NCBI GenBank assembly: GCA_964611335.1
Contig: CAZSXR010000001.1
Coordinates: 744,020 to 808,019 of the forward strand
Direction of reading: 5' to 3'
Origin: an uncultured Pseudobdellovibrionaceae bacterium
GTDB lineage: Bacteria > Bdellovibrionota_B > Oligoflexia > Oligoflexales > Bog-1112
DNA length: 64,000 bases
A model generated the notes under the pieces. That model saw only the letters and a list, made by a program, of their open reading frames with translations, had not been told where the DNA came from and ran no database searches. This document shows positions 38,204-64,000 of the stretch, one piece after another; within the stretch, counting starts at the first letter, position 1, and each line of letters begins with the position of its first letter. Both the position numbers and the translations under genes were made by a program.

Positions 38204-39703
38204 ATGTTTAAAATCTTATTCTTTGTTTCCATACTCTTATCCTGTGCCAAAACTCCCGAAGCTCCTATGCACACACCTTGGACAGCCTCCTTAAGTGCTT
38301 CGAATTGCTCTGGTCCTGGTTTGGCTTTGGTGGGTACAGATACGAATGCGAATACGAGTACAAACCTCATTGTTCCTGTCCCCTTGAATCAACTTACGAT
38401 GACAAATTTAACAGTGCAATCTGCAGTTCCTTTTCCTTCTTTACCTAATTTTACCTTGCTTGCTGTGAGTGCAACGGTCAATGATGCTATGGGTGGTTAC
38501 ATTCAAGTTTTTGTGTCTCCTCGCAATTCTAGTGAGAAAGTTCCTTCGAATGCGCTTCGTTGGATTCCTCTTTCTGCAGGAACTTACAAAGTCAGCGCCT
38601 ACCCTTGTAACAGTTTAGGTTGTAGAAAGGATTTGGAACAGATTTTTCCTTACCTGCAAGTTGCTGCTAATCCTGCAACCGTTCAAGCTATAGGTCCTAC
38701 ATTCACACAATGTTATAACATTTTACAGAAACTTCAGGATGCAGGGACTACGATTGTAGAATATGCGAAAGGTTTGGAAACATACTTTCAATCTTATGGT
38801 TCAGGTCTGCATCTTGCAGATTCTTGTATGACAGGAGCTTTGAACTCTGCTGCTCAAAGTATGCAGAACATTCAAACTTTAGGCCCTTCTTATATGGGGG
38901 AAATCGCTTCCAACGCAGACGCTCTGCATGCAGAGAATCAGCAGCTTTTAAATCTGATTGCAAATCAGCAAGCAGTTGCGAATGCATCATCAAACAAAGT
39001 GACTACAGTTTCTGAAACGACGACGACGACTGCAACGCAGACTTCGAGTTCCCATTCGTCTACTGCGGGTAAAGCTGTACTTCTCAGTTTGGGTGTAGTC
39101 GGGATTGTGACAGGTCTCATAGCTGCTGTTACAGCAGGGACGGTGAAGACTATGGGTTGGACGAATGTGATTGGGAATTTAGAAGTGACTGTAGAGAAAA
39201 TGTCGAAGAAGATTATAGCTGCGAATTTATCTACAGCTGCTTTTAGAAAACTTATGGAGGAGCTGAAGTTAGATAGTGAGTTAAAAACAAAGTTGGAAAA
39301 TAAGGTAGGTACTTTGAGTGGATCGGTTGAGGATATTGCAAAATTACAGACAGAGCTCACACCACAAAGCAAAATGTATGCAAATCAGAAAACTTTACTC
39401 AACAGAGCTTCTATAGGGGGCATTGCTGGAATTGCTGTTTCTATCGCAGGTGCTATAGCAGTCGGAGTATCCCAATTATCTTTGGTAGGAACAAATTCTG
39501 TTTCTTCAACATCTACTCAGAGTAAAATTACAAGCAACACCAACACCAGCACCTCCACAGATACCAGTACTTCCAAAACAAATGCGGGTAATCCTTTCGA
39601 TCAAGCTTCCGATTATTTTACGAAAGTTATATTTCCCCTACAGCAGCAGTTCCGTGACTGTACTGTAAGTCTTTACGACAAAGTTCTTACTGCTCCGAAG
39701 TAG
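38204..39703 (+). CDS. hypothetical lipoprotein-like membrane protein with two TM helices flanking a coiled-coil segment
   Basis: 499 aa with lipobox ILLSCAK and S/T linker TTTTTATQTSSSHSS. TM1 is AVLLSLGVVGIVTGLIAAVTAG, followed by a charged segment, then TM2 IGGIAGIAVSIAGAIAVGV and an S/T-rich tail. Same layout as 21332..23092. Confidence 0.65.
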   Translation: MFKILFFVSILLSCAKTPEAPMHTPWTASLSASNCSGPGLALVGTDTNANTSTNLIVPVPLNQLTMTNLTVQSAVPFPSLPNFTLLAVSATVNDAMGGYIQVFVSPRNSSEKVPSNALRWIPLSAGTYKVSAYPCNSLGCRKDLEQIFPYLQVAANPATVQAIGPTFTQCYNILQKLQDAGTTIVEYAKGLETYFQSYGSGLHLADSCMTGALNSAAQSMQNIQTLGPSYMGEIASNADALHAENQQLLNLIANQQAVANASSNKVTTVSETTTTTATQTSSSHSSTAGKAVLLSLGVVGIVTGLIAAVTAGTVKTMGWTNVIGNLEVTVEKMSKKIIAANLSTAAFRKLMEELKLDSELKTKLENKVGTLSGSVEDIAKLQTELTPQSKMYANQKTLLNRASIGGIAGIAVSIAGAIAVGVSQLSLVGTNSVSSTSTQSKITSNTNTSTSTDTSTSKTNAGNPFDQASDYFTKVIFPLQQQFRDCTVSLYDKVLTAPK

Positions 39704-39731
39704 GAAATAAAAAGGTGGACAGCCAAGTGTT

Positions 39732-42608: not shown

Positions 42609-42732
42609 TTCAACGTGTCCTGTTGGGGGTAAACACCCTCCACTCTCCTTATCGTTATTTTGAAGGTGAAAGTTGAGAAATTAGGAATAAAGGCTTATTT
42701 TTTTAGTAAAATTGGCATGTTGCGTACTTTTT

Positions 42733-45597: not shown

Positions 45598-45837
45598 AAC
45601 AAAATATTTCCCGATCGTTTGCGCATTCTCCTTGCAAAGATTCACCAGTATGCTGTTCGTCTTTTTCTTTTGCAAAAATGAGTGGTCGAGCACTCTCACT
45701 TTAAAAGGATTTTTAACGCACTGATTTTTAAAGAAATTATCATTTCTTTTTTTTAAAAAAATATTCTTAATTTTCATAATTAAAATGACGACAAGGAGTA
45801 TGCTCAGTGTCTGCCTAATTCAAGGAGGAGTCTTACT

Positions 45838-48171: not shown

Positions 48172-48183
48172 GGGAGCTATAGA

Positions 48184-50595
48184 GTGTGTTTACGAAACAA
48201 CATAGTGCGATCTGTTTTAGCATCAGGCTTATTGATGTTCGTTGTTTTATTTTTACACTTAAGTTTAGAGTCCTGTTCTCGAGATGAGAAATCAAAAAGA
48301 GAAAGTGTACAAGTTCCTTTTTCAATCAGTAAAACAAACGCTCTTGCTTTGGAAGATTCAGAATCTTTGGATCTTGTTTCTAATGGAACAAACATTCAAA
48401 TTTCTGTGAGTGGATGTTCCAGTGGTTTTACGTATTCTACGGCAGGTATCAATTCGGGTGCTGTTAATCTTTATAAAGGCGATCAGAATTGTCTTGTAAA
48501 ATTGCAAAGTTTTGTTTTTGGAACCACAACCTATTCTGCAACAGCTACAGGTGCTACGAATTTTACAACGTGGACTCCAGGTAGTATGGCAACATTTGCA
48601 AATGTATCCTCATCCACAGATCTTATAAACGTTTTTATCAACACTCAGGTGACGTCGACCGGTGTCTTGGTAACAGATACCGTTTCTTATAACTTCACAG
48701 ACGTCACTGCGACAACAACACAGAACTTAAATCAAGCAAGTGTTTCCACTCCTGTTCCTCTTTCCGTGTCAGGAGCTGCAACACCATCTTTTACAATGAC
48801 TCAGGCAGTCACTCTGTTATTGAATGCAAACGGTTCTGCAAATATGACGTTCACTTTGCAATGTTCATCCGCTCTTACAGGATCTACTCTTCCCACTTAT
48901 GCGTGTGGTGGGGCAGTGTTGCAAACTCAGTTAGATTACATTCTTATAGCCGATGCCTATTCGCAAGGAGCTATTACGGAAGGACAGGCAAATGCGGCGT
49001 TTATTGCAAACACTCCGACGGCCATTGGATCTTTGATCATACCGACTGGTGGTGTGGATCTTTACAATAACACTTTAGCAAACGGTGGTTTTTATACGAG
49101 CACCAGCAGCCCTCTTGTGACAGGATCGGTATCTATATATCCAAGCAATCGCAACTATGTGTTTATGATTCGACGCAAAGATGTGAGTGGAAATGTTACG
49201 GGTTATCTTTATTTCTATGTAAATTTTCCAACGACACTTTCTGCGGAAGTTAGTGGATGCGGAACCACGTTTGCGGGAGGTGCAGGTACACTAACGAATC
49301 CCTATCAGATTGCAAATGCTTACTATCTTGCTAATACTGTGAACTGTACGTCCTCGACGACTTATTTTATACAAACAAATAATTTTGATCTTGGTGGTGC
49401 TGCAACGCCTTGGACACCTATACAACTTTATGGGCAATACAATGGGAATGGAAAAACGATTTCGAATCTCTATGTTTCCGGTGGAACAGCCACCAACGTG
49501 GGACTCTTTTCTATTATAAATTCAGGTGCAAGTATTTCAAGTTTAACTCTATCCTCTGTTAATATATCAGGTGGACAATATATAGGAGCTCTTGCGGCTC
49601 AGATGAGTGGAGGAACAGTTACAAGTGTGTCTGCGAGTGGAACTCTCGCTGCGAATTCCATTTCTACAGGTACGGGAATTGTGGCTGGAGGCCTTATAGG
49701 ATCAATGACTACTGGAACTGTGAGTTCCTCGTCTTCCTCCGTGAGTATCACTTACAATCCATCTACTACTAACACAGGTTCTATGTATTTTGGTGGTTTG
49801 ATTGCATCGATAGTTACAAGCACTTCGAACGCAACACTTACAAATTGCTTTGCCACGGGTTCCATTACAGCTTCTGGTGCTACAAGCACGAATGCGGGTA
49901 CAAGTTATTTTGGTGGGATGATTGCTTATGCATCTACCACAGGTTCTTCCGTAATCAGTGTGAGTCAATCCTATGCTACGGGTGCCCTAACTCTTAATTA
50001 TGCACCTACAACTTCAATGGCAACCTATATGGGTGGCTTTATTGGAGTAGCAACATCTGTGTGGCCTTCTAATGTGACGCTTTCGAAGAATTTTGCAACA
50101 GGTGCTTTGTCTTTTGTACATACAGCAAATACTGGCATTACTATGGGTGGTTTTGCAGGTGCGTTTAATAATGAGACTGCTAACAATAATTACAGTATGG
50201 GTTCTATCACTCTTACAGGGTCTGGTAGTGGAGGTGCTATAGGTGGATTTGTAGGTGCTTCTGCGAGTGGAAGTGCGGTTAGTACGTCGTATTCTGCTGC
50301 GGCTTCCATAAATATTTCAGGACTCTCTGTAAATCAGGGGGCATTTCAGGATAATTCAGATCCATTAACTGCATCGAATGACTACTACTATGCGAGTGGA
50401 AGTGTAGGCACCAACTCTTATTCGGGTGTTACGGGTCTGAGTTCTGCACAGATGATAGTTCAGTCTAACTTCACAGGTTTTGATTTCTCAACACCGATTT
50501 GGAGAATGCCTAGTGCAAATCCTTTATCACCAGGTGGCTTACTAAGTCCTGTGTTTAACTGGCAGTGCGGTAGCAACGGAATTACATGTATTTAA
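48184..50595 (+). CDS. GLUG-repeat lipoprotein, family member 4 (803 aa)
   Basis: GTG start 12 nt after the previous TAA, with GGGAG SD and lipobox LSLESCS. All family landmarks are present, including YSATATGATNFTTW. Ends WQCGSNGITCI. Confidence 0.85.
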   Translation: MCLRNNIVRSVLASGLLMFVVLFLHLSLESCSRDEKSKRESVQVPFSISKTNALALEDSESLDLVSNGTNIQISVSGCSSGFTYSTAGINSGAVNLYKGDQNCLVKLQSFVFGTTTYSATATGATNFTTWTPGSMATFANVSSSTDLINVFINTQVTSTGVLVTDTVSYNFTDVTATTTQNLNQASVSTPVPLSVSGAATPSFTMTQAVTLLLNANGSANMTFTLQCSSALTGSTLPTYACGGAVLQTQLDYILIADAYSQGAITEGQANAAFIANTPTAIGSLIIPTGGVDLYNNTLANGGFYTSTSSPLVTGSVSIYPSNRNYVFMIRRKDVSGNVTGYLYFYVNFPTTLSAEVSGCGTTFAGGAGTLTNPYQIANAYYLANTVNCTSSTTYFIQTNNFDLGGAATPWTPIQLYGQYNGNGKTISNLYVSGGTATNVGLFSIINSGASISSLTLSSVNISGGQYIGALAAQMSGGTVTSVSASGTLAANSISTGTGIVAGGLIGSMTTGTVSSSSSSVSITYNPSTTNTGSMYFGGLIASIVTSTSNATLTNCFATGSITASGATSTNAGTSYFGGMIAYASTTGSSVISVSQSYATGALTLNYAPTTSMATYMGGFIGVATSVWPSNVTLSKNFATGALSFVHTANTGITMGGFAGAFNNETANNNYSMGSITLTGSGSGGAIGGFVGASASGSAVSTSYSAAASINISGLSVNQGAFQDNSDPLTASNDYYYASGSVGTNSYSGVTGLSSAQMIVQSNFTGFDFSTPIWRMPSANPLSPGGLLSPVFNWQCGSNGITCI

Positions 50596-50607
50596 CGGAG
50601 ATATAGT

Positions 50608-53517
50608 GTGAACTTAAGAACAAACATGGTCAACTTCAAACGCTTCATAGGCGCAAGTGTTGTTGTCGTTTCATTGTTTGTTCTTTTTCAAATTCTAGAA
50701 GCTTGTGGAAGACCAAACAGTGGTGGAAGTGCGTCAAGAGTTGCTATTCCCATTAGTGTTACAAAAAATTCAGGTACGGCTCTTAGTGAAGGATTGGAAC
50801 TTGTAAGCACAGGAACAACCGTCACAGTTTCTGTAGGTGGCTGTACCAGTGGTTTGACAGAAGCAACTACAGCTATTCCCGGTGGTACAGTAGCATTGTT
50901 TCTTCACGACACAAACTGTGCTGTTAAGTTGCAAACGTTCGTCTTCGGAACAACAACTTATTCTGCAACCGCAACCGGTGCTACAAACTTTACAACATGG
51001 ACGGCGGGAAGTGTTGCAACTTTTGCAAACACAGTTTTGTCTACAGACCGCATTAAAGTTTTCGTCAACACACAGGTTACGCAAGCTGGTGTAGTAAGCA
51101 CAGATACTGTGTCTTATAATTTCACAGATATTGCTTCAACAACGACGCAGAACTTGTCTGCAGTCCAAGTACAAACAGGCGTTCCCCTTGCTGTTACAAG
51201 TAGTAATTTAACTCCTTACTTTACAATGACAGCAGCTCGTGTTGTATCGTTTAACTCCAATGCCTCTGCAAACATGTCTTTCACCTTGCAATGCCAAAGC
51301 ACCGTCACAGGAAACACCGCAGCGAACTATGCTTGCAATGGAGCTAATCTTCAAACACAGTTTGATTATATCCTTGTAAAAGATAACTATTCACAAGGAG
51401 CGATTACCGTTCAACAGGCTATTGCAGCTTTTGCTGCGAATACACCTACCTCCGTAAGTACGCTTGTAGTGGGTCCAAATGGAAGTGATTTGAACTCAAA
51501 TGTTTTGCAATACGGTGGTTTTTATACGAGCAATGCAAGCCCTCTCGCAACGGGAACTACAGCTGTGTATCCAAGCAGTTTGAGTTATGTCTTTATGCTA
51601 AGACAAAAAACTACAGGAGGAAATGCAACAGGCTTCTTGTATTTCTATATAGAGTTTGCGCCATCTGTTCCTTCGGATGTCAGTGGTTGTGGAACTTTCT
51701 TTGCAGGTGGTTCGGGGATAGCGTCGGATCCATATATTGTTGTGAATGCAATTACTTTGTCGAATACGCAGTTTTGTAACACCTCTAGTACTTATTTTAT
51801 TCAACAAACAAACATAGATTTGGGTGGCGCTGCTACACCGTGGACGCCTATACCTCTTTATGGGCAGTATAATGGAAATGGAAAGACGATAAGCAATTTA
51901 TATATAAATGGTGGTTTGTCGAGCAATATAGGTTTGTTTGGTACCATAAATACAGGAGCCAGCGTTTCAAACCTTACCCTCACAGCAGCTGATGTGACAG
52001 GTGGTCAGACGGTTGGTGTACTAGCAGCTAATATGACAAGTGGAACTATAAGTAATGTTTCTATTGGTGGAACTTTAAACGTTATCAGTATTTCAGCAGG
52101 TGGAGTTGTTAATGCAGGTGGTCTTGTTGGTAATATGACAGGAGGGACTATTAGCAGTAGTGTTTCTTCTGTCACACTTTCTCTCACATCCTCTACGAAC
52201 AATGGAGCGACCGTCAATCTGGGAGGAATTATAGGTAATGCTTCTGCATCTGTAGCCGCTATTAGCTTGTCAAATGTTCAGGCTACAGGTTCTATCACAT
52301 CAAGTGCTGGTCAGGATACCAGTGGAACTTCATTTGCTTCGGGAGGAATTGTTGGAAGTTCTGCTGCTGGCGCCTTTTCGGTAACTATTACAAATTGTCT
52401 TTCTAAGGCGAATCAAACACATGGGTTCTATTTTTCAGGAGCTCAGACCCTTTATATTGGTGGGGTAGCTGGAATTTTTACAGGTGGGACAGTGTCTTCT
52501 TGTCTCGTGAGTGCGGCAATGACTCTTACAGGTCAGCCTGGGAATATGAACGTCTTTTTTGGAATGCTTTTAGGACATGGTGGCAATAATACAACGTCCG
52601 TTCAGAATTCAGTTGCTATGGGTTCTGCCAGTGTTTCGGGTTCTGCAGGTTCTGTCTCAGGAACTCTTGGAGGTTTGATTGGTTGTGGTGGTGCTAACCC
52701 TGGCATGAGCATGACAAATTCCTATGCAGCTAATACATCTTTAAGTGGAAGTACGCTTTCTATAGGACAAGTGCTAGGGGCTTGTTACATTAACGTAAGT
52801 AATGTGTATGTGTATAACAATGGAAGTGTGGGAAACAGTGGTGGAGGTATTTTTACAACGGGTTCTGTAACTGCCTACACCACGACAACACAAATGCAAA
52901 CGCAATCTAATTTCGCGTTCGATTTTTCTACACCTGTTTGGCGAATGCCTAATGCGGACCCATTATCGACTATATCTTTGCTTAGCCCAGTCCCTGCATG
53001 GGTTTGTGGAACCAACAGTGTGACTTGTGCCTTTAATACTGTGACGATCGCCAATGGATCATTCGAAACAGGAACCTTCAATGCAGGAAGTGGTGTTGCT
53101 AACCTCAATGCCGGTAACGGTACTCTTACAAGTTGGACTATTGGAGGGGGTGGAATCAAAGTTTTCAATACAATTGATCTTACATCAGCAGCCTCTATTT
53201 ACAGTGTAGATTTGAATGGAAGTGCAGGAACATCTGGATCCGTAAGTCAAAACATAACGACTGTTAACGGAACGACTTATACTTTCTACTTCGACCTTGC
53301 AGGAAACCCATCATGTGGAGCTAGTACTATGACGTTAACTGTTGCTGCAGGTGCTACTTCTCAGTCGTATTCATTTAATACATCAGGATTCAGCTCTACA
53401 ATTATGGGTTGGACGACGAAAACTTTTACATTTAAAGCGACAGCTGCTTCGACAGCTCTGTCGTTTACAAGTACAGTATCGGGAACGTGTGGTCCTATGA
53501 TTGACAATATTCACTAG
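50608..53517 (+). CDS. GLUG-repeat lipoprotein, family member 5 (969 aa) with C-terminal DUF642-like domain
   Basis: GTG start and lipobox ILEACG. Family landmarks are present. After AWVCGTNSVTC comes ANGSFETGTF..WTIGGGGIKV..VDLNG..YTFYFDLAGNPSCG..GPMIDNIH. Confidence 0.85.
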   Translation: MNLRTNMVNFKRFIGASVVVVSLFVLFQILEACGRPNSGGSASRVAIPISVTKNSGTALSEGLELVSTGTTVTVSVGGCTSGLTEATTAIPGGTVALFLHDTNCAVKLQTFVFGTTTYSATATGATNFTTWTAGSVATFANTVLSTDRIKVFVNTQVTQAGVVSTDTVSYNFTDIASTTTQNLSAVQVQTGVPLAVTSSNLTPYFTMTAARVVSFNSNASANMSFTLQCQSTVTGNTAANYACNGANLQTQFDYILVKDNYSQGAITVQQAIAAFAANTPTSVSTLVVGPNGSDLNSNVLQYGGFYTSNASPLATGTTAVYPSSLSYVFMLRQKTTGGNATGFLYFYIEFAPSVPSDVSGCGTFFAGGSGIASDPYIVVNAITLSNTQFCNTSSTYFIQQTNIDLGGAATPWTPIPLYGQYNGNGKTISNLYINGGLSSNIGLFGTINTGASVSNLTLTAADVTGGQTVGVLAANMTSGTISNVSIGGTLNVISISAGGVVNAGGLVGNMTGGTISSSVSSVTLSLTSSTNNGATVNLGGIIGNASASVAAISLSNVQATGSITSSAGQDTSGTSFASGGIVGSSAAGAFSVTITNCLSKANQTHGFYFSGAQTLYIGGVAGIFTGGTVSSCLVSAAMTLTGQPGNMNVFFGMLLGHGGNNTTSVQNSVAMGSASVSGSAGSVSGTLGGLIGCGGANPGMSMTNSYAANTSLSGSTLSIGQVLGACYINVSNVYVYNNGSVGNSGGGIFTTGSVTAYTTTTQMQTQSNFAFDFSTPVWRMPNADPLSTISLLSPVPAWVCGTNSVTCAFNTVTIANGSFETGTFNAGSGVANLNAGNGTLTSWTIGGGGIKVFNTIDLTSAASIYSVDLNGSAGTSGSVSQNITTVNGTTYTFYFDLAGNPSCGASTMTLTVAAGATSQSYSFNTSGFSSTIMGWTTKTFTFKATAASTALSFTSTVSGTCGPMIDNIH

Positions 53518-53526
53518 GAGTTTGCT

Positions 53527-55905
53527 GTGTTGAATATAAGAAAGAACATGAGAAAACTAACGCGAAGCCAATTTGTATTCGTAATGGGAAGCGTAGGTAT
53601 GTTCTTTTTTATGAGTTTTGTACAATGTTCCCGAGATGACAGAGGTTCTCAAACAAAACTCAGTATACCTGTAAATCTCAACTATCTTGCGCCAACAACA
53701 TATAGACTAGATGAATCCAATCAGCAAGGTTTGGAACTCGTAGCAACTGCTACTAATTTGAGTGCTTCGTTAACTGGATGCTCAAGCAGCTTATCTTTCG
53801 GTACAACTCTATTGCGCGCGTCCTATATACAAGTCTTTCTTGGTGATACCAACTGTCTTTTGAAACTTCAAAGTTACGTAATCGGAAGCACAACCTATTC
53901 AGCAACAGCAACAGGTGCAACGAACTTCACAACGTGGACGGTGGGAAGTGTAGCAACCTTTGCAAACACAACATTGTCCACAGATACGATGAAAGTCTTT
54001 GTTGGTGCCCAGCTTACACAAACTGGAATTCTTTCTACCGATACAGTTGTCTATAACTTTACGGAGAGTACTGCAGCGCCAACTCAGAACTTATCAACGG
54101 CTACTGTATCTTTTCCTGTTCCTCTTTCTGTCTCAGGGCAAACGCCAAATTTTACATTTACTCAGGTACGTGAACTTTCTGTGAATGCAAATGGATCTTT
54201 CAACGTGTCTTTCACCTTACAATGCGCTGTCCCCGAAACAGGAGCAACAGGTCCCACTTATGCGTGTAGCGGAGCTATTTTGCAATCTCAGTTGGATTAC
54301 ATTTTTATTGCAGATGCGTATTCTCAAGGAACTATTACAAGCGCACAAGCGGCAACAGCTTTCACAGCTAATACTCCGACGGCAGTGGGAACACTCACAG
54401 TTGCGCCTGGTGGAACAGATTTGAATGGAAATACTCTCCCCAACGGTGGCTTTTATACAAGCAACTCAACACCTTTAGTTACAGGAACCACTGCTGTGTA
54501 TCCTAGTAACTACAATTATGTGTTTATGCTTCGTCAAAAAGATGCGTTTGGAAACGTACTCGGTTACATGTATGCGTATGTGGATTTTCCTCCCACTCCA
54601 GGAATTGCAGGTTCCTGTGGGGCTTATTTTGCTTCAGGTTCGGGAACTGTGGGAAGTCCTTATGTTGTGAACAGTGCTCAAACTCTGATGTACACAACTT
54701 TGTGTCAGTCCTCTTCGATTTACTTTATTCAGACTGCAACATTTGATTTGGGTGGATCTTCTACACCTTGGGTTCCTATTCCACTTTATGGGCAATACAA
54801 TGGTAACGGGTTTTCGATCACGGGACTCTATGTTAATAACGCAACTGCGAGTGCAAACGATGGGTTGTTTACAACCATCAATACCGGAGCTAGTGTTTCG
54901 AACTTAACTATTAGTTCGGCAAGTGTAACTTCAGCAGGAACAAACATAGGAATCTTAGCGGGTTCTTCAAGTGGTTCTATTACAGGTGTAACTGTGAGTG
55001 GAACTGTAGCAACTCAAGGTACTATTGCAACGACTGTGATTATAGGTAGTTTGGTAGGAAACTTAGCGTCAGGAGGAACGATCACAACATCTACCTCTAC
55101 AGCTAACGTGACATGGGGTGCAACAACATTGACAGGTACTACTGTACGGATGGGAGGACTTGTTGGAAACACTTCAGGAACTTCGATAACTTTATGCTCT
55201 TATGTGGGGACTATAACGGCAACGCAACGTGTTGGTACTTTTGTACTGAATGCTGTTGGTGGTTTGGTGGGATCTGTAACCGCAGGAAGTGTGTCTCAGA
55301 ACTATGCGATAGCAACGATGTCGGTAGACCCCAATACATCTTTAGGTCCCCAAGATATAGGAGGCCTGGTGGGTCAGACGGCAGCAAGCATTACACTTTC
55401 ACAAAACTATGCATCTGGATCTATGACGGTGACAAGAGTTGCAAGCTCAGCTGTATACAGTATTGGTGGTATGGTGGGACTAGCGGGTGCCACGAGCACG
55501 ATTATAAATTCCTACACGATGGTAACGATGAGTGTTACAACAGCAAGAACGTCAGACTTCTACGGAGGTTTTGTAGGGAAGGCTGTTGCTATAACCGATT
55601 GTTATTCTGCAAACCCAACGATGTCAACAACACAGGGTAACGCATTCGGTAAATCTACAGGCATCACAGGAACTATTACAACATCGTACTATGATTCCAT
55701 TGCAGGTTTGCCTACGCAGGGAGCCATCACAGGTTTGAGTGCTATCACTCCTGCAAATATTGCAACGCAAGGAAGTTTTACAGGATTCGATTTCGCAACG
55801 CCAATATGGAGAATGCCAAGTGCAAACCCACTTGCATCTCCGAATACAACTTTGAGTCCCGTCTTAAACTGGCAGTGTGGTTCGAATGGAATTACATGTA
55901 TTTAA
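53527..55905 (+). CDS. GLUG-repeat lipoprotein, family member 6 (792 aa)
   Basis: GTG start 9 nt after the previous TAG (AGGAG SD) and lipobox SFVQCS. Family landmarks are present. The 3' 0.94 kb belongs to the near-identical block family. Confidence 0.85.
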   Translation: MLNIRKNMRKLTRSQFVFVMGSVGMFFFMSFVQCSRDDRGSQTKLSIPVNLNYLAPTTYRLDESNQQGLELVATATNLSASLTGCSSSLSFGTTLLRASYIQVFLGDTNCLLKLQSYVIGSTTYSATATGATNFTTWTVGSVATFANTTLSTDTMKVFVGAQLTQTGILSTDTVVYNFTESTAAPTQNLSTATVSFPVPLSVSGQTPNFTFTQVRELSVNANGSFNVSFTLQCAVPETGATGPTYACSGAILQSQLDYIFIADAYSQGTITSAQAATAFTANTPTAVGTLTVAPGGTDLNGNTLPNGGFYTSNSTPLVTGTTAVYPSNYNYVFMLRQKDAFGNVLGYMYAYVDFPPTPGIAGSCGAYFASGSGTVGSPYVVNSAQTLMYTTLCQSSSIYFIQTATFDLGGSSTPWVPIPLYGQYNGNGFSITGLYVNNATASANDGLFTTINTGASVSNLTISSASVTSAGTNIGILAGSSSGSITGVTVSGTVATQGTIATTVIIGSLVGNLASGGTITTSTSTANVTWGATTLTGTTVRMGGLVGNTSGTSITLCSYVGTITATQRVGTFVLNAVGGLVGSVTAGSVSQNYAIATMSVDPNTSLGPQDIGGLVGQTAASITLSQNYASGSMTVTRVASSAVYSIGGMVGLAGATSTIINSYTMVTMSVTTARTSDFYGGFVGKAVAITDCYSANPTMSTTQGNAFGKSTGITGTITTSYYDSIAGLPTQGAITGLSAITPANIATQGSFTGFDFATPIWRMPSANPLASPNTTLSPVLNWQCGSNGITCI
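54970..55905 (+). repeat. copy A of ~0.94-kb direct repeat (3' block of family member 6)
   Basis: Aligns codon for codon with 57561-58496. I estimate roughly nine in ten bases identical over the stretches compared by eye. Confidence 0.8.
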
Positions 55906-56126
55906 GTGGAGCTAATTTCCTTGTTTGCCATAACTTTAGCGTAGATAGAGGATGAAGTCGGAGCGACAGAAGACGGATGTTAGCGACTCATAAGTTCTAG
56001 AAGCAGCGCATAACCGCATGAAAATACTGCAAAAAGATCATTTCTTAGAAATTCCCTCATTTTTTAACCCTTACATTACGATAAGTGTTTAGGATTCTTG
56101 TTTCTTTAAGAATCGGGGGCACGAGT

Positions 56127-58496
56127 GTGATCAGAAACGGTAGAAATCGAAGACCCTACTCTTTTGTATTGGCATCATTCTTTTCGATGTCGATGCTCTT
56201 CGTTTTTTATTTCACACTTAGTAAATGTTCTAATGATAGCAATAATTCTGAAAAAGTCAGCATTCCTGTGACTCTTAGCTACACACCCAAAACAGGTTTA
56301 GATCTTAGTGACTCCTTAGATCTCGCATCTAATGCAACATCTGTCAGTATATCTGTCACAGGCTGTGCAAGTGGTGCGAATTACCCTTCGCAGTTAAATC
56401 CTACAGGTGTTGTAAGTCTATTTGTTGGAGATAGAAACTGTCTAGTTAAGTTACAAAGTTTTGAAGTTTTTGGAACCATTTATTCAGCGACAGCAACGGG
56501 AGCGACAAACTTCACAACGTGGACTCCAGGAAGTGTTGCAACCTTTGCAAGTATAAGCTCGTCAACAACTACAATTAAAGTTTTTGTCGCATCTCAAGTT
56601 ACAGCAGCGGGTGTTCTGTCAAATGATGCAGTAACCTACACGTTTACCGATACGAGTTCCACAACAACGCAGAACATATCACAAGCGTCAATTTCAACTC
56701 CTGTTCCCCTTTCTGTATCAGGGCACACGGGTGAACCAAACTTCACTTTAACAGCAGCTCGTGCTCTCTCTATAAATGCAAACGGTTCCTACAATATGTC
56801 TTTTACTTTGCAATGTGCTGTTCCAGAGACAGGATCTACAGGCCCCACCTATGCATGCAGTGGAGCTTTATTGCAATCACAGTTTGACTATATATTGATT
56901 CATGATGCGTATTCACAAGGTGTTATCACTGTTCAACAAGCGAATGCAGCGTTCGTTGCAAACACTCCCACAACTGTGGGAACTCTCACGGTTGCGCCGG
57001 GTGGAAATGATTTGAATGGTAACAATCTCCCCAATGGTGGTTTTTACACAAGCAATGCAAGTCCTCTTGTAACAGGCACAACGCCTGTATTTTCAAACAA
57101 TAGGGACAATGTATTTATACTTCGACAGAAAACAACAGGTGGAAGTGCTACAGGGTATTTGTATTTCTACGTGAATTTACCGCTTATTTCTTCAAGTGTC
57201 AGTGCGTGTGGTGGTGCTTTTGCGGGTGGAGATGGAAGTGCAACGAGTCCCTACGGTGTGAACGATGTTACTACGTTGGCAAATGTGGATGCGTGTGGAA
57301 CATCTGCAACTTATTTTGTGCAACTTGCAACATTTGACTTAGGAGGTTCGGGAACGCCTTGGACTCCTATTCAGCTTAATGGCCAGTATGATGGAGGAGG
57401 ATATTCCATCACAGGTCTTTATGTAAACAGAACTACCGCAAGTGCAAGCGACGCTTTGTTTAGTAGTATAGGTACGGGTGCAAGCGTCGCGAATCTTACA
57501 ATAAGTTCGGGAAGTGTAAGTTCCTCAGGAACAAACATAGGCATGTTGGCAGGAACATCTAGTGGTTCCATCACGAATGTGACTGTGAGTGGCACCGTAG
57601 CAACACAAGGAACCATTGCATCGACGGTCATTATAGGTGGTTTGATTGGAAACTTAGCGACTGGTGGGAGCATCACAAGCTCGAGTTCAACAGCAAGTGT
57701 GACATGGGGTGCAACAACATTGACAGGAACGACAGTACAAATGGGAGGTCTTGTTGGAAATACTTCAGGGACATCGATTACTTCGTGCTCTTACGTGGGA
57801 ACTATAACGGCAACGCAACGTGTTGGTACTTTTGTACTGAATGCAGTCGGTGGTTTAGTAGGATCTGTAACCGCAGGAAGTGTGTCTCAGAACTATGCAA
57901 TAGCAACGATGTCGGTAAACCCCAACACATCTTTAGGTCCTCAGGATATAGGAGGCTTGGTGGGTCAGACGGCAGCAAGCATTACACTTTCACAAAACTA
58001 TGCGTCGGGTTCTTTAACGGTGACAAGAGTTGCAAGCTCAGCTGTATACAATATAGGTGGTATGGTGGGACTAGCGGGTGCAACAAGCACGATTATAAAT
58101 TCTTACACGATGGTAACGATGAGTGTTACGACAGCAACAGCGACAGACTTTTACGGAGGTTTTGTAGGAAAAGCAGTTGCTATAACCGATTGTTATTCTG
58201 CGAATCCAACGATGTCGACGACACAGGGTAACGCTTTTGCAAAGGCATCGGGTGTAACAGGTACTGTTACAACGTCCTATTACGATTCTATTGGTGGCTT
58301 ACCTACTCAAGGAGCTATCACAGGTTTGAGTGCTATCACTCCTGCGAATATTGCAACGCAAGGAAGTTTTACGGGATTTGATTTCGCAACACCGATATGG
58401 AGAATGCCAAGTGCTAACCCACTTGCCTCTCCGAATACAACTTTGAGTCCTGTGTTGAACTGGCAGTGCGGTTCGAATGGAATTACGTGTATTTAA
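56127..58496 (+). CDS. GLUG-repeat lipoprotein, family member 7 (~789 aa)
   Basis: The track ORF starts at GTG 56085. By analogy with the paralog N-termini (x-I/L-R-N..), GTG 56127 (MIRNGRNRR..) is more likely. Lipobox FTLSKCS; ends WQCGSNGITCI. Confidence 0.8.
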   Translation: MIRNGRNRRPYSFVLASFFSMSMLFVFYFTLSKCSNDSNNSEKVSIPVTLSYTPKTGLDLSDSLDLASNATSVSISVTGCASGANYPSQLNPTGVVSLFVGDRNCLVKLQSFEVFGTIYSATATGATNFTTWTPGSVATFASISSSTTTIKVFVASQVTAAGVLSNDAVTYTFTDTSSTTTQNISQASISTPVPLSVSGHTGEPNFTLTAARALSINANGSYNMSFTLQCAVPETGSTGPTYACSGALLQSQFDYILIHDAYSQGVITVQQANAAFVANTPTTVGTLTVAPGGNDLNGNNLPNGGFYTSNASPLVTGTTPVFSNNRDNVFILRQKTTGGSATGYLYFYVNLPLISSSVSACGGAFAGGDGSATSPYGVNDVTTLANVDACGTSATYFVQLATFDLGGSGTPWTPIQLNGQYDGGGYSITGLYVNRTTASASDALFSSIGTGASVANLTISSGSVSSSGTNIGMLAGTSSGSITNVTVSGTVATQGTIASTVIIGGLIGNLATGGSITSSSSTASVTWGATTLTGTTVQMGGLVGNTSGTSITSCSYVGTITATQRVGTFVLNAVGGLVGSVTAGSVSQNYAIATMSVNPNTSLGPQDIGGLVGQTAASITLSQNYASGSLTVTRVASSAVYNIGGMVGLAGATSTIINSYTMVTMSVTTATATDFYGGFVGKAVAITDCYSANPTMSTTQGNAFAKASGVTGTVTTSYYDSIGGLPTQGAITGLSAITPANIATQGSFTGFDFATPIWRMPSANPLASPNTTLSPVLNWQCGSNGITCI
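57561..58496 (+). repeat. copy B of ~0.94-kb direct repeat (3' block of member 7)
   Basis: Offset of exactly 2388 bp to copy C. 58059-58450 reads identical base for base to 60447-60838 (392 bp). Mismatches elsewhere are scattered. Confidence 0.9.
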
Positions 58497-58514
58497 CGAA
58501 GAAGGAGTTTGGGT

Positions 58515-60884
58515 GTGAATCAAAGAGTTAACATAAAACCACGTTTCATCTTGGTGTCGGTATTTTGGATGCCGTTGTTAGCTCTTTTGTATTTTACTTT
58601 TCATTCTTGTTCTAATGATGAGAACTCCGATCTTGTTGCTGTTGAGATTCCTATTTCCGTAACCTACCAACCTTCTACAGAGCTTGCGCAAGAGGAGGAT
58701 TCCCTCGAACTTGTATCATCAGCAACGGTCGTCACGGCTTCTATTTCAGGTTGTTCAAGTGGATATACAGCAGGAACGACGGTTCAAACTTCAACTATAA
58801 CTATGTATCTGACTGATAAAAACTGTCTTGTGAAGTTACAAAGTTTCATCTTTCAAAACACAACGTATTCTGCAACTGCAACCGGCGCAACAAACTTCAC
58901 AACTTGGTTAGCAGGAGATGCTGCAAGTTTTGCAAGCACAGCATCTTCTACCAATGTAATTAAAGTCAAAGTCGGTACGCAGGTTACACAAGCGGGTATA
59001 CTGAATACAGATGTAGTATCCTATCTCTTTACAGATATTTCTTCAACCACCACTCAAAATTTAACACAGCCTTCTGTCTCAACACCTGTTCCTCTTTCCG
59101 TTAGTGGGAAATCACCAAACTTTACTTTGACTGCAGCGAGAACTCTTGCAATCAATGCGAATGGTTCGTACAGTGTTTCCTTCACTTTGCAATGTGGTGT
59201 TTTGCAAACGGGATCTGGTGCAACTGCTGCATGTGATGGTGCAACGTTACAGGCTACAACACCTGCGCAACTGTCTTATATATTTATACCGGATGTTTAT
59301 TCTCAGGGTGCACTTGATGTTACACAATTAACAGCAGCTTTCGGTGCGAATACGCCAACAAGTGTGGGTACACTGACTGTGAACCCTGGTGGTGCAGATT
59401 TAAATGGAAACACTCTGACAAACGGTGGATTTTATACAAGCAATGCAAGCCCCCTTGTAACAGGAACGACACCAGTTTATCCGAGTGCTTTGAACTACGT
59501 GTTTATGCTTCGACGATCAGATTCTTTCTCAAACGCATTGGGCTATTTATATTTCTATGTAACCTTTCCTTCTTTCTCTTCTCTCGTTAGTGGATGTGGA
59601 ACTACGTTTGCAGGTGGAGCAGGAACTGCAGCAGATCCTTATGGGGTTAATGATCGTACGACTTTAGCAAACACCGTAAACTGCGCAACATCTGCAACTT
59701 ATTTTGTACAAACTGCCAATATAGATTTGGGTGGTTCTGGAAACCCATGGATACCTATTCAACTCAATGGCCAGTACAATGGAAATGGAAATTCTATCAC
59801 AGGACTTTATGTAAACCGTTCGACAGCAAGTGCAAGCGACGCTTTGTTTACTAGCATTGCTACGGGAGCGAGCGTTTCAAACTTAAATATTACATCTGCG
59901 AGTGTATCGTCTGCAGGCACAAAAATAGGCATTCTTGCGGCAGATGCAAGTGGTTCCATCACGAATGTGACTGTGAGTGGCACCGTAGCAACACAAGGGA
60001 CCATTGCATCGACAGTCATCATAGGTGGTTTGATTGGAAACTTAGCGTCGGGTGGAAGCATCACAAGCTCGAGTTCAACAGCAAGTGTGACATGGGGTGC
60101 AACAACATTGACAGGAACGACAGTACAAATGGGAGGTCTTGTTGGAAATACTTCAGGGACATCGATTACTTCGTGTTCTTACGTGGGAACTATAACGGCA
60201 ACGCAACGTGTTGGTACGTTCGTACTGAATGCAGTCGGTGGTTTAGTAGGATCTGTGACCGCAGGAAGTGTGTCCCAGAACTATGCAATAGCAACGATGT
60301 CGGTAAACCCTAATACATCTTTAGGTCCTCAGGATATAGGGGGCCTAGTTGGTCAGACGGCAGCAAGCATAACGCTTTCGCAAAACTATGCATCGGGTTC
60401 TATGACGGTTACAAGAGTTGCAAGCACAGCTGTATACAGCATTGGGGGTATGGTGGGACTAGCGGGTGCAACAAGCACGATTATAAATTCTTACACGATG
60501 GTAACGATGAGTGTTACGACAGCAACAGCGACAGACTTTTACGGAGGTTTTGTAGGAAAAGCAGTTGCTATAACCGATTGTTATTCTGCGAATCCAACGA
60601 TGTCGACGACACAGGGTAACGCTTTTGCAAAGGCATCGGGTGTAACAGGTACTGTTACAACGTCCTATTACGATTCTATTGGTGGCTTACCTACTCAAGG
60701 AGCTATCACAGGTTTGAGTGCTATCACTCCTGCGAATATTGCAACGCAAGGAAGTTTTACGGGATTTGATTTCGCAACACCGATATGGAGAATGCCAAGT
60801 GCTAACCCACTTGCCTCTCCGAATACAACTTTGAGTCCGGTGTTAGACTGGCAGTGTGGTTCGAATGGAATTACGTGTATTTAA
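58515..60884 (+). CDS. GLUG-repeat lipoprotein, family member 8 (~789 aa)
   Basis: The GAAGGAG SD is 8 nt before GTG 58515; track TTG 58509 is only 2 nt from the SD. Lipobox FTFHSCS. The 3' block is near-identical to member 7. Confidence 0.85.
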   Translation: MNQRVNIKPRFILVSVFWMPLLALLYFTFHSCSNDENSDLVAVEIPISVTYQPSTELAQEEDSLELVSSATVVTASISGCSSGYTAGTTVQTSTITMYLTDKNCLVKLQSFIFQNTTYSATATGATNFTTWLAGDAASFASTASSTNVIKVKVGTQVTQAGILNTDVVSYLFTDISSTTTQNLTQPSVSTPVPLSVSGKSPNFTLTAARTLAINANGSYSVSFTLQCGVLQTGSGATAACDGATLQATTPAQLSYIFIPDVYSQGALDVTQLTAAFGANTPTSVGTLTVNPGGADLNGNTLTNGGFYTSNASPLVTGTTPVYPSALNYVFMLRRSDSFSNALGYLYFYVTFPSFSSLVSGCGTTFAGGAGTAADPYGVNDRTTLANTVNCATSATYFVQTANIDLGGSGNPWIPIQLNGQYNGNGNSITGLYVNRSTASASDALFTSIATGASVSNLNITSASVSSAGTKIGILAADASGSITNVTVSGTVATQGTIASTVIIGGLIGNLASGGSITSSSSTASVTWGATTLTGTTVQMGGLVGNTSGTSITSCSYVGTITATQRVGTFVLNAVGGLVGSVTAGSVSQNYAIATMSVNPNTSLGPQDIGGLVGQTAASITLSQNYASGSMTVTRVASTAVYSIGGMVGLAGATSTIINSYTMVTMSVTTATATDFYGGFVGKAVAITDCYSANPTMSTTQGNAFAKASGVTGTVTTSYYDSIGGLPTQGAITGLSAITPANIATQGSFTGFDFATPIWRMPSANPLASPNTTLSPVLDWQCGSNGITCI
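59949..60884 (+). repeat. copy C of ~0.94-kb direct repeat (3' block of member 8)
   Basis: See copy B. Confidence 0.9.
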
Positions 60885-60899
60885 CAGAGGAGTTTGAGT

Positions 60900-63284
60900 G
60901 TGAAATGGAAGTTTGAAATGTTTAAAAGAATAGCGATGGTTTCCACCTTTTGGATATCTCTCGCTATGTTTTTGCATTTCACTTTTGAAGCTTGCTCAAA
61001 TGATTCTAATAACAATGCAGAGACAGTGAATATACCGCTCAAAGTTTTATACACAGCTTCACAAAATTTAGATCTTCAAAACCAAGGAGAATTGGGACTT
61101 GTCAATGGAACTGTACAAATTATTTCTGTTGCTGGATGTGCCAGTGGATTTGCACAAGCACCTGAGGTGGATGACTGGGGTTATGTCACTCTTTTGTTGA
61201 AAGATAGAAACTGTCTTGTAAAACTCAGTAGTTTTGTCTATGGAACAACGACTTATTCAGCTACAGCAACCGGTGCAACAAATTTTACAACATGGTTAGC
61301 GAATGACACAGCAACCTTTGCAAGTATTACAAACTCTTCAGACCTTCTTCGTGTAGTTGTCACAGCACAAGTAACTCAAGGTGGTATTCTAAACACAGAC
61401 GTTGTGACTTATACGTTCAACACTATTGCTGCGACAACAACGCAAAGCTTAGCGCAACCTACTATTTCAACAGCTGTTCCTCTTTCTGTGAGAGGTAAGT
61501 CACCAAACTTTACTATGACAGCTGCTAGAACCCTTACGATTAATGCAAATGGTTCTTACAGTGTATCGTTCACTTTACAATGTGGTGTTTTACAAACGGG
61601 ATCTGGTGCAACTGCCGCATGCGATGGTGCAACGTTACAGGCTACAACGCCTGCTCAAGTCGATTATATATTTATACCGGATGCCTATTCACAGGGTGCC
61701 ATTACAGAAGCGCAAATGGCTTCAGCTTTTGGTGCTACTACACCAACAAATGTGGGTACATTGACTGTGAACCCTGGTGGTGCAGACTTAAACGGAAATA
61801 CATTAACGAATGGTGGATTTTATACAAGCAATGCAAGTCCTCTAGTAACAGGGACAACACCCGTCTATCCGAATGCATTGAACTATGTGTTTATAGTTCG
61901 TAGAAGAGATACCTTCTCTAATGCTTTGGGCTATCTATATTTCTATGTAAATTTCCCATCGCAATCTATTAATGTTAGCGGATGTGGAACTTACTTCGTA
62001 GGAGGTTCCGGTACATCCATAGATCCTTATCAAGTGGCAGATCGTGCAACTTTAGCAAACACAGCTTTATGTACAAGTTCCACAACCTATTTCTTACAAA
62101 CAGACAATATTGACTTGGGTGGTTCAGGAAACCCTTGGACACCTATACAACTCTATGGTCAGTACAATGGGAGTGGATACAATATTACGGGACTCTATAT
62201 AAGCAGTACAACAGGAAGCGGTGGTGCAAGTTTTGGTTTGTTCAGCACAATGAACACAGGTTCTAGTGTTTCCGATTTGAACCTTGTTTCTGTAAGTGTA
62301 ACTGCAGCAGGTTTGAACGTCGGAGCCTTAGCAGGAAATGCTAGTGGTTCAGTAACGAATTGTACAGTGAGTGGAACAGTCACGACGGGTGCTGCTGCAA
62401 TTTCTCAAAACGTGGTGATGGGAGGGCTTGTTGGAAATTTAGCGACAGGTGGAACGATTACGACTTCTAATTCAACAGCAAGTGTATCGTGGGGGACGAG
62501 TACTTTATCAGGAACACGTACAGTGCAAGTGGGTGGGCTTGTTGGTAATACTTCAGGAACTTCCATTACACTCAGCTCTTATGTCGGTACGATCAGCGCA
62601 ACCGAAGCGGTGGGAACGTTTACGCTCAATGCAGTTGGTGGATTGGTTGGTTCTGTTACAGCAGGATCTGTTTCACAGAATTATGCAATTCCTACAATGA
62701 CAGTGACTCCAGGTACGTCCTTAGGACCTCAAGATATAGGTGGACTTGTAGGTCAAACAGCTGCAGGTATTACTCTGACACAAAATTATGCTTCAGGTTC
62801 TATCACTGTAACAAGGCCAGCAAGTACTGCAGTCTATAGTATAGGAGGTATGGTAGGTCTTGCTGGAACAACCAGTACTATTTCAAATTCCTATACGATG
62901 GTAACGATGAGTGTTACGACAGCAACAGCGACAGACTTTTACGGAGGTTTTGTAGGAAAGGCCGTTGCTATAACCGATTGCTATTCTGCGAATCCATCGA
63001 TGTCGACAACGCAGGGTAACGCTTTTGCAAAGGCATCAGGTGTAACAGGTACCGTTACAACATCCTATTACGATTCTATTGTAGGCTTGCCTACTCAAGG
63101 AGCTATCACAGGTTTGAGTGCCATAACTCCTGCGAATATTGCAACGCAAGGAAGTTTTACAGGATTCGATTTCGCAACACCGATATGGAGAATGCCAAGT
63201 GCTAACCCACTTGCATCTCCGAATACAACTTTGAGTCCAGTCTTGAACTGGCAGTGCGGTTCGAATGGAATCACATGTATTTAA
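60900..63284 (+). CDS. GLUG-repeat lipoprotein, family member 9 (~794 aa)
   Basis: The GAGGAG SD is 8 nt before GTG 60900 (the track ORF starts at TTG 60894). Lipobox FTFEACS. The N-module shares a long near-identical stretch with member 8 (ANGSYSVSFTLQCGVLQTGSGATAACDGATLQATTPAQ). Confidence 0.85.
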   Translation: MKWKFEMFKRIAMVSTFWISLAMFLHFTFEACSNDSNNNAETVNIPLKVLYTASQNLDLQNQGELGLVNGTVQIISVAGCASGFAQAPEVDDWGYVTLLLKDRNCLVKLSSFVYGTTTYSATATGATNFTTWLANDTATFASITNSSDLLRVVVTAQVTQGGILNTDVVTYTFNTIAATTTQSLAQPTISTAVPLSVRGKSPNFTMTAARTLTINANGSYSVSFTLQCGVLQTGSGATAACDGATLQATTPAQVDYIFIPDAYSQGAITEAQMASAFGATTPTNVGTLTVNPGGADLNGNTLTNGGFYTSNASPLVTGTTPVYPNALNYVFIVRRRDTFSNALGYLYFYVNFPSQSINVSGCGTYFVGGSGTSIDPYQVADRATLANTALCTSSTTYFLQTDNIDLGGSGNPWTPIQLYGQYNGSGYNITGLYISSTTGSGGASFGLFSTMNTGSSVSDLNLVSVSVTAAGLNVGALAGNASGSVTNCTVSGTVTTGAAAISQNVVMGGLVGNLATGGTITTSNSTASVSWGTSTLSGTRTVQVGGLVGNTSGTSITLSSYVGTISATEAVGTFTLNAVGGLVGSVTAGSVSQNYAIPTMTVTPGTSLGPQDIGGLVGQTAAGITLTQNYASGSITVTRPASTAVYSIGGMVGLAGTTSTISNSYTMVTMSVTTATATDFYGGFVGKAVAITDCYSANPSMSTTQGNAFAKASGVTGTVTTSYYDSIVGLPTQGAITGLSAITPANIATQGSFTGFDFATPIWRMPSANPLASPNTTLSPVLNWQCGSNGITCI
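62343..63284 (+). repeat. copy D of direct repeat (3' block of member 9; 5' half more diverged, 2 extra codons)
   Basis: From ~62890 onward it is very close to copies B and C (for example a 66-bp identical run acgatggtaacgatgagtgttacgacagcaacagcgacagacttttacggaggttttgtaggaaa). The last 200 bp is a patchwork of A-type and B/C-type variants. Confidence 0.8.
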
Positions 63285-63298
63285 AGTGAGGATATTTT

Positions 63299-64000
63299 GT
63301 GAGCATAAGATTACACATCGATAATAGATCTACACGTCTGATTCTGACGTCCGTGTTTTGGATATCGATGCTTTCCCTTTTACCTTTTGTAATCGATGCT
63401 TGTTCGAATGATGAAAATAATGATGCTTCGAGTTATGAAATACCTGTAAGTATTATAGATACAAATTCGCAAAGTTTAGAAATTCAAAATTCAGATGAGA
63501 ATTCTCTAGGTCTTGTTAATGGTACGAATCCTGCAGTGGCAGTTACAGGTTGTGCAAGTGGAAACACTCAACTTGCGCATATTATTACGAGTACGGTCAC
63601 ACTGTTACTTAAAGATAAAAACTGTCTTGTAAGACTTGTAAGTTTTGTCTACTTAACAAACACCTATTCCGCAACGGCGACAGGAGCTACAAACTTTACA
63701 ACATGGTTAGCAAATGATACAGCGACTTTCGTAAATGTGAATACATCTACCGATACTTTGAAAGTTACTGTGACGGCTCAGGTTACTCAATCGGGTGTGT
63801 TGAATACCGACGTGGTGACTTATAATTTTCTTACGAGCACCTCTTCTACAACGCAGACTTTAGCAGCTCCTCTCATACAAACAGGGGTTCCTCTTTCCGT
63901 TAGAGGAGTAACTCCAAACTTCACAATGGCCGCAGCGCGGTCTCTTTCTGTGAATGCAAATGGTTCCATAAATATGTCTTTCACTCTCGAGTGTGGGGTT
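63299..64000 (+). CDS. GLUG-repeat lipoprotein, family member 10 (5' part only; runs off the right edge)
   Basis: Absent from the ORF track (no stop in window). My translation from GTG 63299 (GAGGA SD) gives VSIRLHIDNRSTRLILTSVFWISMLSLLPFVIDACSNDENN...VTGCASGN..DKNCLVRLVSFVY..YSATATGATNFTTWLANDTATF...NMSFTLECGV. Confidence 0.8.
   Translation, partial: MSIRLHIDNRSTRLILTSVFWISMLSLLPFVIDACSNDENNDASSYEIPVSIIDTNSQSLEIQNSDENSLGLVNGTNPAVAVTGCASGNTQLAHIITSTVTLLLKDKNCLVRLVSFVYLTNTYSATATGATNFTTWLANDTATFVNVNTSTDTLKVTVTAQVTQSGVLNTDVVTYNFLTSTSSTTQTLAAPLIQTGVPLSVRGVTPNFTMAAARSLSVNANGSINMSFTLECGV

Follow-up and report, generated by a model that had tools for sequence, protein, structure and literature searches.

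Probable segmental gene conversion in a tandem array of lipoprotein-like genes from an uncultured Pseudobdellovibrionaceae bacterium

At Neisseria pilE/pilS, Borrelia vlsE, Anaplasma msp2 and Treponema tprK, a single expression site is accompanied by silent, truncated donor cassettes, and recombination targets the variable region. For the Bartonella trw locus, Nystedt et al. are said to have described in 2008 how tandem genes for surface components undergo concerted evolution. In Helicobacter pylori, the 3' segments of the adhesin genes babA/babB, homA/homB and sabA/sabB are homogenised within a genome while their 5' or middle segments diverge, a pattern ascribed to RecA-dependent intragenomic gene conversion that gives rise to chimeric genes (PMC3960876). 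Here we analyse a 64,000-nt stretch of contig CAZSXR010000001.1 (assembly GCA_964611335.1) from an uncultured Pseudobdellovibrionaceae bacterium, hereafter the window, which holds ten tandem paralogous genes (m1 to m10, positions 39732-64000) delimited by their open reading frames (ORFs) and by a profile of their N-terminal module (N-module) that matches all ten. Four consecutive members, m6 to m9, form a mosaic with diverged 5' parts and 3' parts homogenised to different degrees, most probably through gene conversion.

A recombination mosaic across m6 to m9

The four genes are encoded on the + strand at 53527-55905 (m6, 792 aa), 56085-58496 (m7, 803 aa as ORF), 58509-60884 (m8, 791 aa) and 60894-63284 (m9, 796 aa), and the architecture of m6 comprises a lipoprotein-like signal, the N-module, a GLUG β-helix and a Cys tail. 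The original prediction, made from the sequence and its ORFs, held that the 3'-terminal 936 bp of these two genes, m7 and m8, sit at an exact offset of 2388 bp. Indeed, the m7 block (57561-58496, +), which encodes residues ~492-803, that is, the C-terminal two-thirds of the β-helix plus the tail, is 96.5% identical to the m8 block (59949-60884, +). Their 33 differences are almost all synonymous, with a proportion of nonsynonymous differences (pN) of 0.00-0.02; pN and its synonymous counterpart (pS) were calculated throughout as Nei-Gojobori proportions along the codon alignment, with bootstrap confidence intervals. Within these blocks, the predicted 392-bp identity was confirmed without a single mismatch: positions 58059-58450 (+) in m7 equal 60447-60838 in m8, probably the youngest tract of the mosaic and the longest exact run at this offset, ahead of runs of 119 and 50 bp. 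The upstream boundary at 57560/57561 is sharp, with 35 mismatches in the preceding 98 bp (~64% identity). The 5' parts are far more diverged, as had been claimed; the 5' 1.5 kb of m7 and m8 are only 50-67% identical, and the 5' parts of the members overall 32-72%. Sliding identity thus rises from 0.3-0.7 in the 5' part to 0.9-1.0 in the 3' part, which excludes uniform divergence along the genes.

The further claim that all four members carry near-identical 0.94-kb blocks holds for m6 and fails for most of m9. In an ungapped comparison across these 936 bp, m6 matches m7 and m8 at 87-88% identity, and m9 reaches ~73% overall, with 92-96% only in its last ~400 bp. The m6 block is itself composite. 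It contains a tract of apparently intermediate age (55180-55577, +) in common with m7 (57771-58168) and m8 (~91-93% identical, pS 0.24), then an interrupting non-homogenised segment (55578-55722, +; pS versus m7 0.57) dominated by abbb sites, and finally a tail tract (55723-55902, +) that matches the m7, m8 and m9 tails at 93-94% identity (pS 0.26-0.31, pN 0.00). In m9, the tail tract at 62874-63281 (+) is 92-96% identical to m7 and m8 (pS 0.25); upstream of 62874 this gene is the outlier of the four (pS about 0.7), with a weak affinity to m2. Across all 45 paralog pairs, exact matches of at least 30 nt are confined to the m6-m9 3' blocks, and their chance origin is excluded.

Synonymous divergence between m7 and m8 is saturated (pS 0.60-0.70) over the first ~1750 alignment columns, falls to 0.18 (0.12-0.25) in columns 1750-2340 and reaches 0.00 over the 119 codons of columns 2340-2760, the bootstrap confidence intervals of these segments being non-overlapping. 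This drop from saturation to zero along the same genes cannot be explained by selection at the protein level. Moreover, at the codons that are identical in m7 and m8, pS is 0.57 for m6/m7 (columns 2400-2625) and 0.62 for m4/m7; the m6/m7 value indicates that these sites are free to vary and under no intrinsic constraint. Consecutive 3' segments of m6/m7 yield pS values of 0.24, 0.57 and 0.31.

Phylogenetic signal changes along the alignment as well. We ran neighbour-joining segment trees (with m2, m4 and m5 as outgroups), the pairwise homoplasy index (PHI), a GENECONV-like run test and MaxChi, all as in-house implementations. Bootstrap support was 100% for {m8+m9} in columns 840-1330 and 99-100% for {m7+m8} in others. 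Columns 1330-1780 grouped {m2+m9} with 88%, columns 1780-2400 recovered {m6+m7+m8} with 100% and {m7+m8} with 99%, and columns 2400-2850 recovered {m7+m8+m9} with 97%. {m8+m9} conflicts with {m7+m8}, and {m6+m7+m8} with {m7+m8+m9}; the segment groupings are mutually incompatible. Likewise, the dominant site pattern is aabb in columns 900-1050, aaab (m9 outlier) in columns 1800-2400 and abbb (m6 outlier) in columns 2400-2740, the outlier of the four shifting from m9 to m6 near column 2400. PHI was highly significant for m6-m9 (z = -9.65, p < 0.001, the floor of 1000 permutations) and gave z = -16.9 for m4-m9. The longest concordant run, of 65 consecutive polymorphic sites in m7/m8, had p = 2e-4, and that of m6/m7 p = 8e-4. 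MaxChi returned p <= 0.001 for six of six pairs and located breakpoints around columns 1630-1770 and 2399; it scored 174 for the m7/m8 block (p = 5e-4) and placed the m7/m9 breakpoint at column 2399 (p = 5e-4). Together, the pS profile, the conflicting segment trees, PHI, the run test and MaxChi bear out the predicted homogenisation of the GLUG/tail part by recombination among m6-m9 and provide statistical support for its breakpoints. Gene m8 epitomises the mosaic, its inner N-module patch being closest to m9 and its 3' block closest to m7.

Recombination had also been proposed for segments of the N-modules. A segment common to m8 and m9 does exist at an offset of 2388 bp (59131-59300 versus 61519-61688), with 86% nucleotide identity and a peak of 91-94%; the m9 counterpart originally given, 61531-61700, is misplaced and only 29% identical. 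The whole patch covers 59085-59535 (+) in m8 and 61473-61923 in m9, at the same offset, and peaks at 59154-59272 / 61542-61660 (91%). Its pS of 0.47 (0.37-0.56), compared with 0.69 and 0.71 in the flanks, together with the {m8+m9} bootstrap, supports its reading as a tract younger than its flanks. The segment common to m6 and m7, proposed as a second case of reshuffling, did not hold up, as the likeness is at the protein level only: nucleotide identity is 78%, nearly all third codon positions differ and pS is 0.64, values that point to old common ancestry and not to recent reshuffling. In the variable 5' ~570 nt, pS is saturated in every pair.

In the last 200 bp, a patchwork of variants alternating over tens of base pairs had been taken as another sign of recombination. 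The variant strings sit at the predicted positions (55776/63155, 55830/63209 and 58391/60779/63179), but the sites that make up the patchwork are abba and abbb, both of which fit the unrooted tree ((m7,m8),m6,m9), only two abab sites conflict with it, and PHI within the block is not significant (p = 0.11-0.39). We dropped this fine-scale patchwork as evidence for recombination, given site patterns that fit one tree and a PHI p of 0.39.

Gene conversion and competing explanations

We put at roughly 85% the probability that repeated homology-dependent, non-reciprocal recombination, that is, gene conversion, among the adjacent genes m6-m9 produced this mosaic; the recombination pathway and the direction of transfer are what we infer. 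At least four events of differing age are visible. A very recent exchange between m7 and m8 would have left the 392 bp with zero differences, nested in the 936-bp block with pS about 0.18. A second event would account for the tract between m6 and m7/m8 (55180-55577), a third for the tail tract common to m9 and m7/m8 (62874-63281), and a fourth, older one for the inner N-module patch common to m8 and m9. Conversion would be intrachromosomal or between sister chromosomes and presumably RecA-mediated, a role suggested by the restriction of the tracts to regions with long exact matches. The 3' half, the most conserved at the protein level, would retain the long exact matches at which strand exchange starts, and homogenisation would thereby reinforce itself. 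Past the stop codon, in the spacer and in the signal peptide of the next gene, homology collapses, and the tracts therefore go no further than this codon. That the high-identity tracts are internal patches, with diverged flanks on both sides, favours gene conversion over a single unequal crossover; the latter may have contributed to the origin of one copy.

Several observations nonetheless weigh against gene conversion as we propose it. The comparison covers paralogs in one genome, and concerted evolution in the strict sense means that paralogs are closer to one another than to orthologs. The m6-m9 genes are known from the deposited assembly only, an independent short-read contig ending 393 nt into m6. 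The layout of m8, with an N-module patch like that of downstream m9 and a C-terminal block like that of upstream m7, also fits one unequal crossover. Finally, the sole other multi-copy array that we found (L001) has no high-identity tracts, its copies showing uniform 35-72% identity, which indicates that such mosaics do not characterise the family in general.

The best surviving alternative, improbable in our judgement, is that a single recent unequal crossing-over, that is, a tandem duplication, produced a chimeric m8 by joining the 5' part of m9 to the 3' part of m7, so that the mosaic would be the footprint of array expansion. The topology is that expected of a middle gene, with the N-module patch of m8 joining downstream m9 (100%) and its 3' block upstream m7 (99-100%), and the unit length is exactly 2388 bp both from m7 to m8 and, in the N-terminal part, from m8 to m9. 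The two halves, however, differ in age, as judged from pS of 0.47 (0.37-0.56) in the m8/m9 patch against 0.00-0.18 in the m7/m8 block. A crossover product should also share all sequence upstream of the junction, and m8 and m9 do not: their likeness is internal, and their first ~570 nt, Shine-Dalgarno sites and spacers are as diverged as in other pairs (identity 0.49-0.63, pS 0.69). The m6 and m9 tracts require further events in any case.

The original prediction went further and likened the array to contingency or antigenic-variation families, in which the constant 3' block would serve as a recombination handle that shuffles variable N-modules at high frequency. Such programmed diversification finds some support in the tandem arrangement of genes with a variable and a constant part, in the one exchange that is visibly very recent, in the signal peptide and Cys, which suggest surface location, and in the analogous 3'-end concerted evolution of H. 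pylori adhesin genes (PMC3960876). We nevertheless hold it to be highly improbable, and the comparison with contingency families was not upheld. There are no simple-sequence repeats or homopolymers of note: Tandem Repeats Finder (TRF) reported only trivial 2-3-copy arrays in the window, where the sole homopolymer of at least 8 nt is a T8 at 45747, near m2. Silent, promoterless or truncated donor cassettes are likewise absent, the nine complete members all being full-length and tightly packed. No Pfam domain of a recombinase, invertase or reverse transcriptase, as would be expected of a shufflon or a diversity-generating retroelement, was detected in the ORFs scanned across the 64 kb, and the m7/m8 substitution spectrum is not adenine-specific. 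Recent tracts sit in the conserved 3' block and not in the variable region, and saturated synonymous divergence in the N-modules argues against rapid exchange there. The L001 array has no tracts, and the few relatives with an organism label are groundwater metagenome-assembled genomes (MAGs).

A related idea, which we rate as unlikely and advance as speculation, is that the array would allow an environmental bacterium, itself poorly sampled, to diversify its surface combinatorially. Conversion would keep the β-helix/tail block identical because the copies use it both as a common recombination handle and as a structural stalk, and unequal exchange would add, delete and re-pair the divergent N-modules, whose relatives are mostly stand-alone proteins of ~340 aa. 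If this were true, a population could vary its ligand- or prey-binding repertoire without a dedicated recombinase.

An assembly or polishing artefact, in which misassigned paralog reads would create false identity, a false mosaic or a wrong copy number, is a remote explanation. The region is evidently hard to assemble: the short-read Logan contig of run SRR11567520 (L004) breaks within m6, full-length m6-m9 proteins occur in the NCBI source only and not in the Logan assembly, and the 392-bp exact repeat is longer than typical reads. Yet a collapse deletes copies and would not yield four intact ORFs with 5' halves 50-70% identical, and the nearly exclusively synonymous differences between the m7 and m8 blocks are those of real genes. 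Mis-polishing presupposes copies that are already highly similar, and a mis-join across 392 bp would add or remove a whole 2388-bp unit and not make graded tracts. The independent contig L004 is 100% identical to window positions 38184-53919. Its break at 53919 adjoins the conserved YSATATGATNFTTW coding stretch in m6, and every 31-mer around the break is unique in the window; the break may reflect sample heterogeneity or a repeated sequence located in another part of the genome. Copy number and the finest details of the mosaic, as read from the deposited assembly alone, should be regarded as provisional.

The chance is negligible that strong purifying selection or codon constraint kept the β-helix and tail alike in the absence of recombination, for although these parts are the most conserved at the protein level family-wide (pN 0.00-0.07) and the WQCG..GI.C tail motif persists in distant homologues, m7/m8 show no synonymous difference over 119 codons at which m6/m7 and m4/m7 are strongly diverged, and the segment trees conflict with high support.

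The array, its proteins and their relatives

The five remaining complete members are older and diverged: m1 (39732-42608) and m2 (42733-45777) on the - strand, and m3 (45838-48171), m4 (48184-50595) and m5 (50608-53517) on the + strand. Their pairwise nucleotide identity is 46-57%, and none has an exact match of at least 30 nt to any other member. An extra C-terminal DUF642 / choice-of-anchor C domain distinguishes m1, m2 and m5, as supported by DUF642 / TIGR04362 matches. The last gene, m10 (63296-64000, +; start probably GTG at 63299), is cut by the window end, beyond which the array extends. Each of the nine complete members is a full-length ORF with a signal peptide plus Cys. Gaps of 9-12 bp separate m3 to m6 and m7 to m10. 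Every + strand member, m3-m10, possesses a GGAG-type Shine-Dalgarno site, which in the closely spaced genes comes right behind the stop codon of the gene before; the copies appear to be translationally coupled and organised as an operon.

The sole sizeable spacer of the array lies between m6 and m7 (55906-56084, +) and is unique, non-coding sequence. Translation of m7 probably begins at the GTG at 56127, so that this spacer would extend to ~220 bp (55906-56126). An internal promoter in this interval may divide the array into two transcription units; window-wide, promoter-like signals are at shuffle level and terminator-like signals modestly above shuffles. The spacer showed no significant RNA fold (z-score +1.68) and no similarity elsewhere in the window, and Rfam gave zero matches across the window, spacer included. 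Between m2 (-) and m3 (+), the divergent, AT-rich interval 45600-45837 contains the T8 at 45747 and a two-copy 24-bp tandem (45725-45774). The m2 ORF as annotated probably begins ~60 codons too early, so that this interval is likely to be a shared divergent promoter region. Two 175-aa ATG ORFs in an alternative frame, inside m6 (55113-55640, +) and m7 (57704-58231, +), are most likely not genes; they are present twice because both lie inside the homogenised block.

All products begin with an N-terminal hydrophobic signal ending in Cys. The lipobox is atypical, and the proteins look lipoprotein-like; their surface location and function are putative. The N-module, comprising the first ~320 residues after the Cys, is β-rich and carries conserved Cys pairs and a YSATATGATNFTTW motif. 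It is a novel β-sandwich domain that matches nothing in Pfam and has no significant structural counterpart in the PDB by Foldseek. N-modules are encoded on the + strand at 45919-46839, 48277-49251, 50710-51681, 53629-54609, 56229-57200, 58611-59588, 60996-61976 and 63404-63997, and on the - strand at 41526-42476 and 44497-45474. Among 1.84 billion proteins, the N-module profile identified 353 representative clusters, 95 of them at E <= 1e-30; these are mostly stand-alone proteins of ~320-370 aa, a few being fused to Laminin_G_3, DUF1554 or DUF642.

The C-terminal ~430 residues of m7 consist of GLUG-type repeats that AlphaFold2 modelled with high confidence as a β-helix; the predicted local distance difference test score (pLDDT) averages 80 over the whole protein and exceeds 85 in the majority of 10-residue blocks from residue ~380 on. 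The modelled helix corresponds to the N-terminal β-helix of IgA1 metalloproteases (7uvk, 7uvl, 6xja and 6xjb; Foldseek E = 5e-5 to 6e-4, probability 1.00). GGLVG-type repeats are seen by eye in every member. Profile matches to Pfam Peptidase_M26_N and Glug and to NCBIfam ZmpA are weak (ZmpA scoring 30 bits against a cut-off of 3000): PF07581 (Glug) is above threshold in m2 only (45.7 bits), m5 has a sub-threshold Peptidase_M26_N match, and m7 and m3 have none. Nor are the products recognisable as M26 proteases, since HExxH occurs in zero members and none matches Peptidase_M26_C. In all members the β-helix is closed by a conserved tail, ..W.MP.A.PL..LSPV..WQCG.NGITC.

The full-length family is rare, with 17 relatives among 5.8 billion proteins; beyond the source genome's own contig, identity does not exceed 53%, and the collections searched contained no close relative. 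The few outside relatives with an organism label are groundwater MAGs labelled Deltaproteobacteria, and the rest come from unlabelled metagenome assemblies. Scanning genomes for related loci returned two distant ones only, again in groundwater MAGs with this label; the metagenome scan returned L001/L005 plus two short fragments only. At L001 (6187-17542), three tandem ~1250-aa paralogs each have an N-module followed by two consecutive β-helix-plus-tail modules; the WQCG..GITC tail is therefore a domain end-cap or linker and not a C-terminal sorting signal. A solitary, diverged 810-aa member (L008, 425-2857) occurs in the same sequencing run on another contig (201 kb in the NCBI source). It is 65-79% identical to the window members, in patches, and takes no part in the mosaic; its location on a separate contig shows that the family is not restricted to the array. 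A further locus (L009) has one family copy, possibly split.

The genes flanking the array in the window are chromosomal housekeeping and secreted-protease genes. The region 24222-34713 is rich in secreted and surface proteins, with Big_5 Ig-like repeats, an OmpA-family protein, a 1038-aa S8 subtilase with a PA domain and an M36-like metalloprotease with a P-domain. An RCC1-repeat protein is encoded at 4004-4552, and an IstB-like ATPase adjoins rpsD (35572-36465).

Relation to known systems

The m6-m9 genes appear to be a clean but ordinary case of concerted evolution; the mechanism is well known, and no new machinery is indicated. They nevertheless illustrate segmental gene conversion within a bacterial tandem array with textbook quality and solid statistics, and their nested tracts of differing age could be used to study tract lengths and homology requirements in bacterial gene conversion. 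The locus also brings a rare, unannotated, lipoprotein-like family to notice, and with two exact 392-bp copies 2.4 kb apart, it can be expected to be difficult to assemble and possibly unstable in copy number. A literature search on GLUG proteins and gene conversion found nothing relevant.

Regarding fold, the C-terminal ~430 residues of m7, as modelled, resemble the GLUG-repeat β-helix of the streptococcal/Gemella IgA1 metalloproteases (7uvk, 6xja, 6xjb), whereas the M26 catalytic domain and HExxH are missing, identity is 13-18%, and the N-module and Cys tail are unrelated to Zmp proteases. Regarding recombination, the cassette systems and m6-m9 have in common a segmental, non-reciprocal conversion among paralogs of the surface-protein type that yields mosaics, but every copy in m6-m9 is a complete gene that has start signals of its own, and conversion affects the constant region. 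As reported for Bartonella trw, recombination homogenises parts of tandemly duplicated surface-protein genes; trw differs in encoding pilus components of a type IV secretion system in a host-associated pathogen.

The H. pylori adhesin paralogs are the closest analogue of the m6-m9 mosaic, since in both the 3' block is homogenised, the 5' part is diverged and some members are chimeric. The bab/hom genes occupy dispersed loci, belong to the Hop β-barrel family and have phase-variable repeats, and their conversion has been shown experimentally and across strains. The m6-m9 genes, in contrast, are tandem and apparently form an operon, belong to an unrelated, lipoprotein-like family that combines a β-sandwich with a GLUG β-helix, are devoid of simple-sequence repeats, and were compared within one genome.

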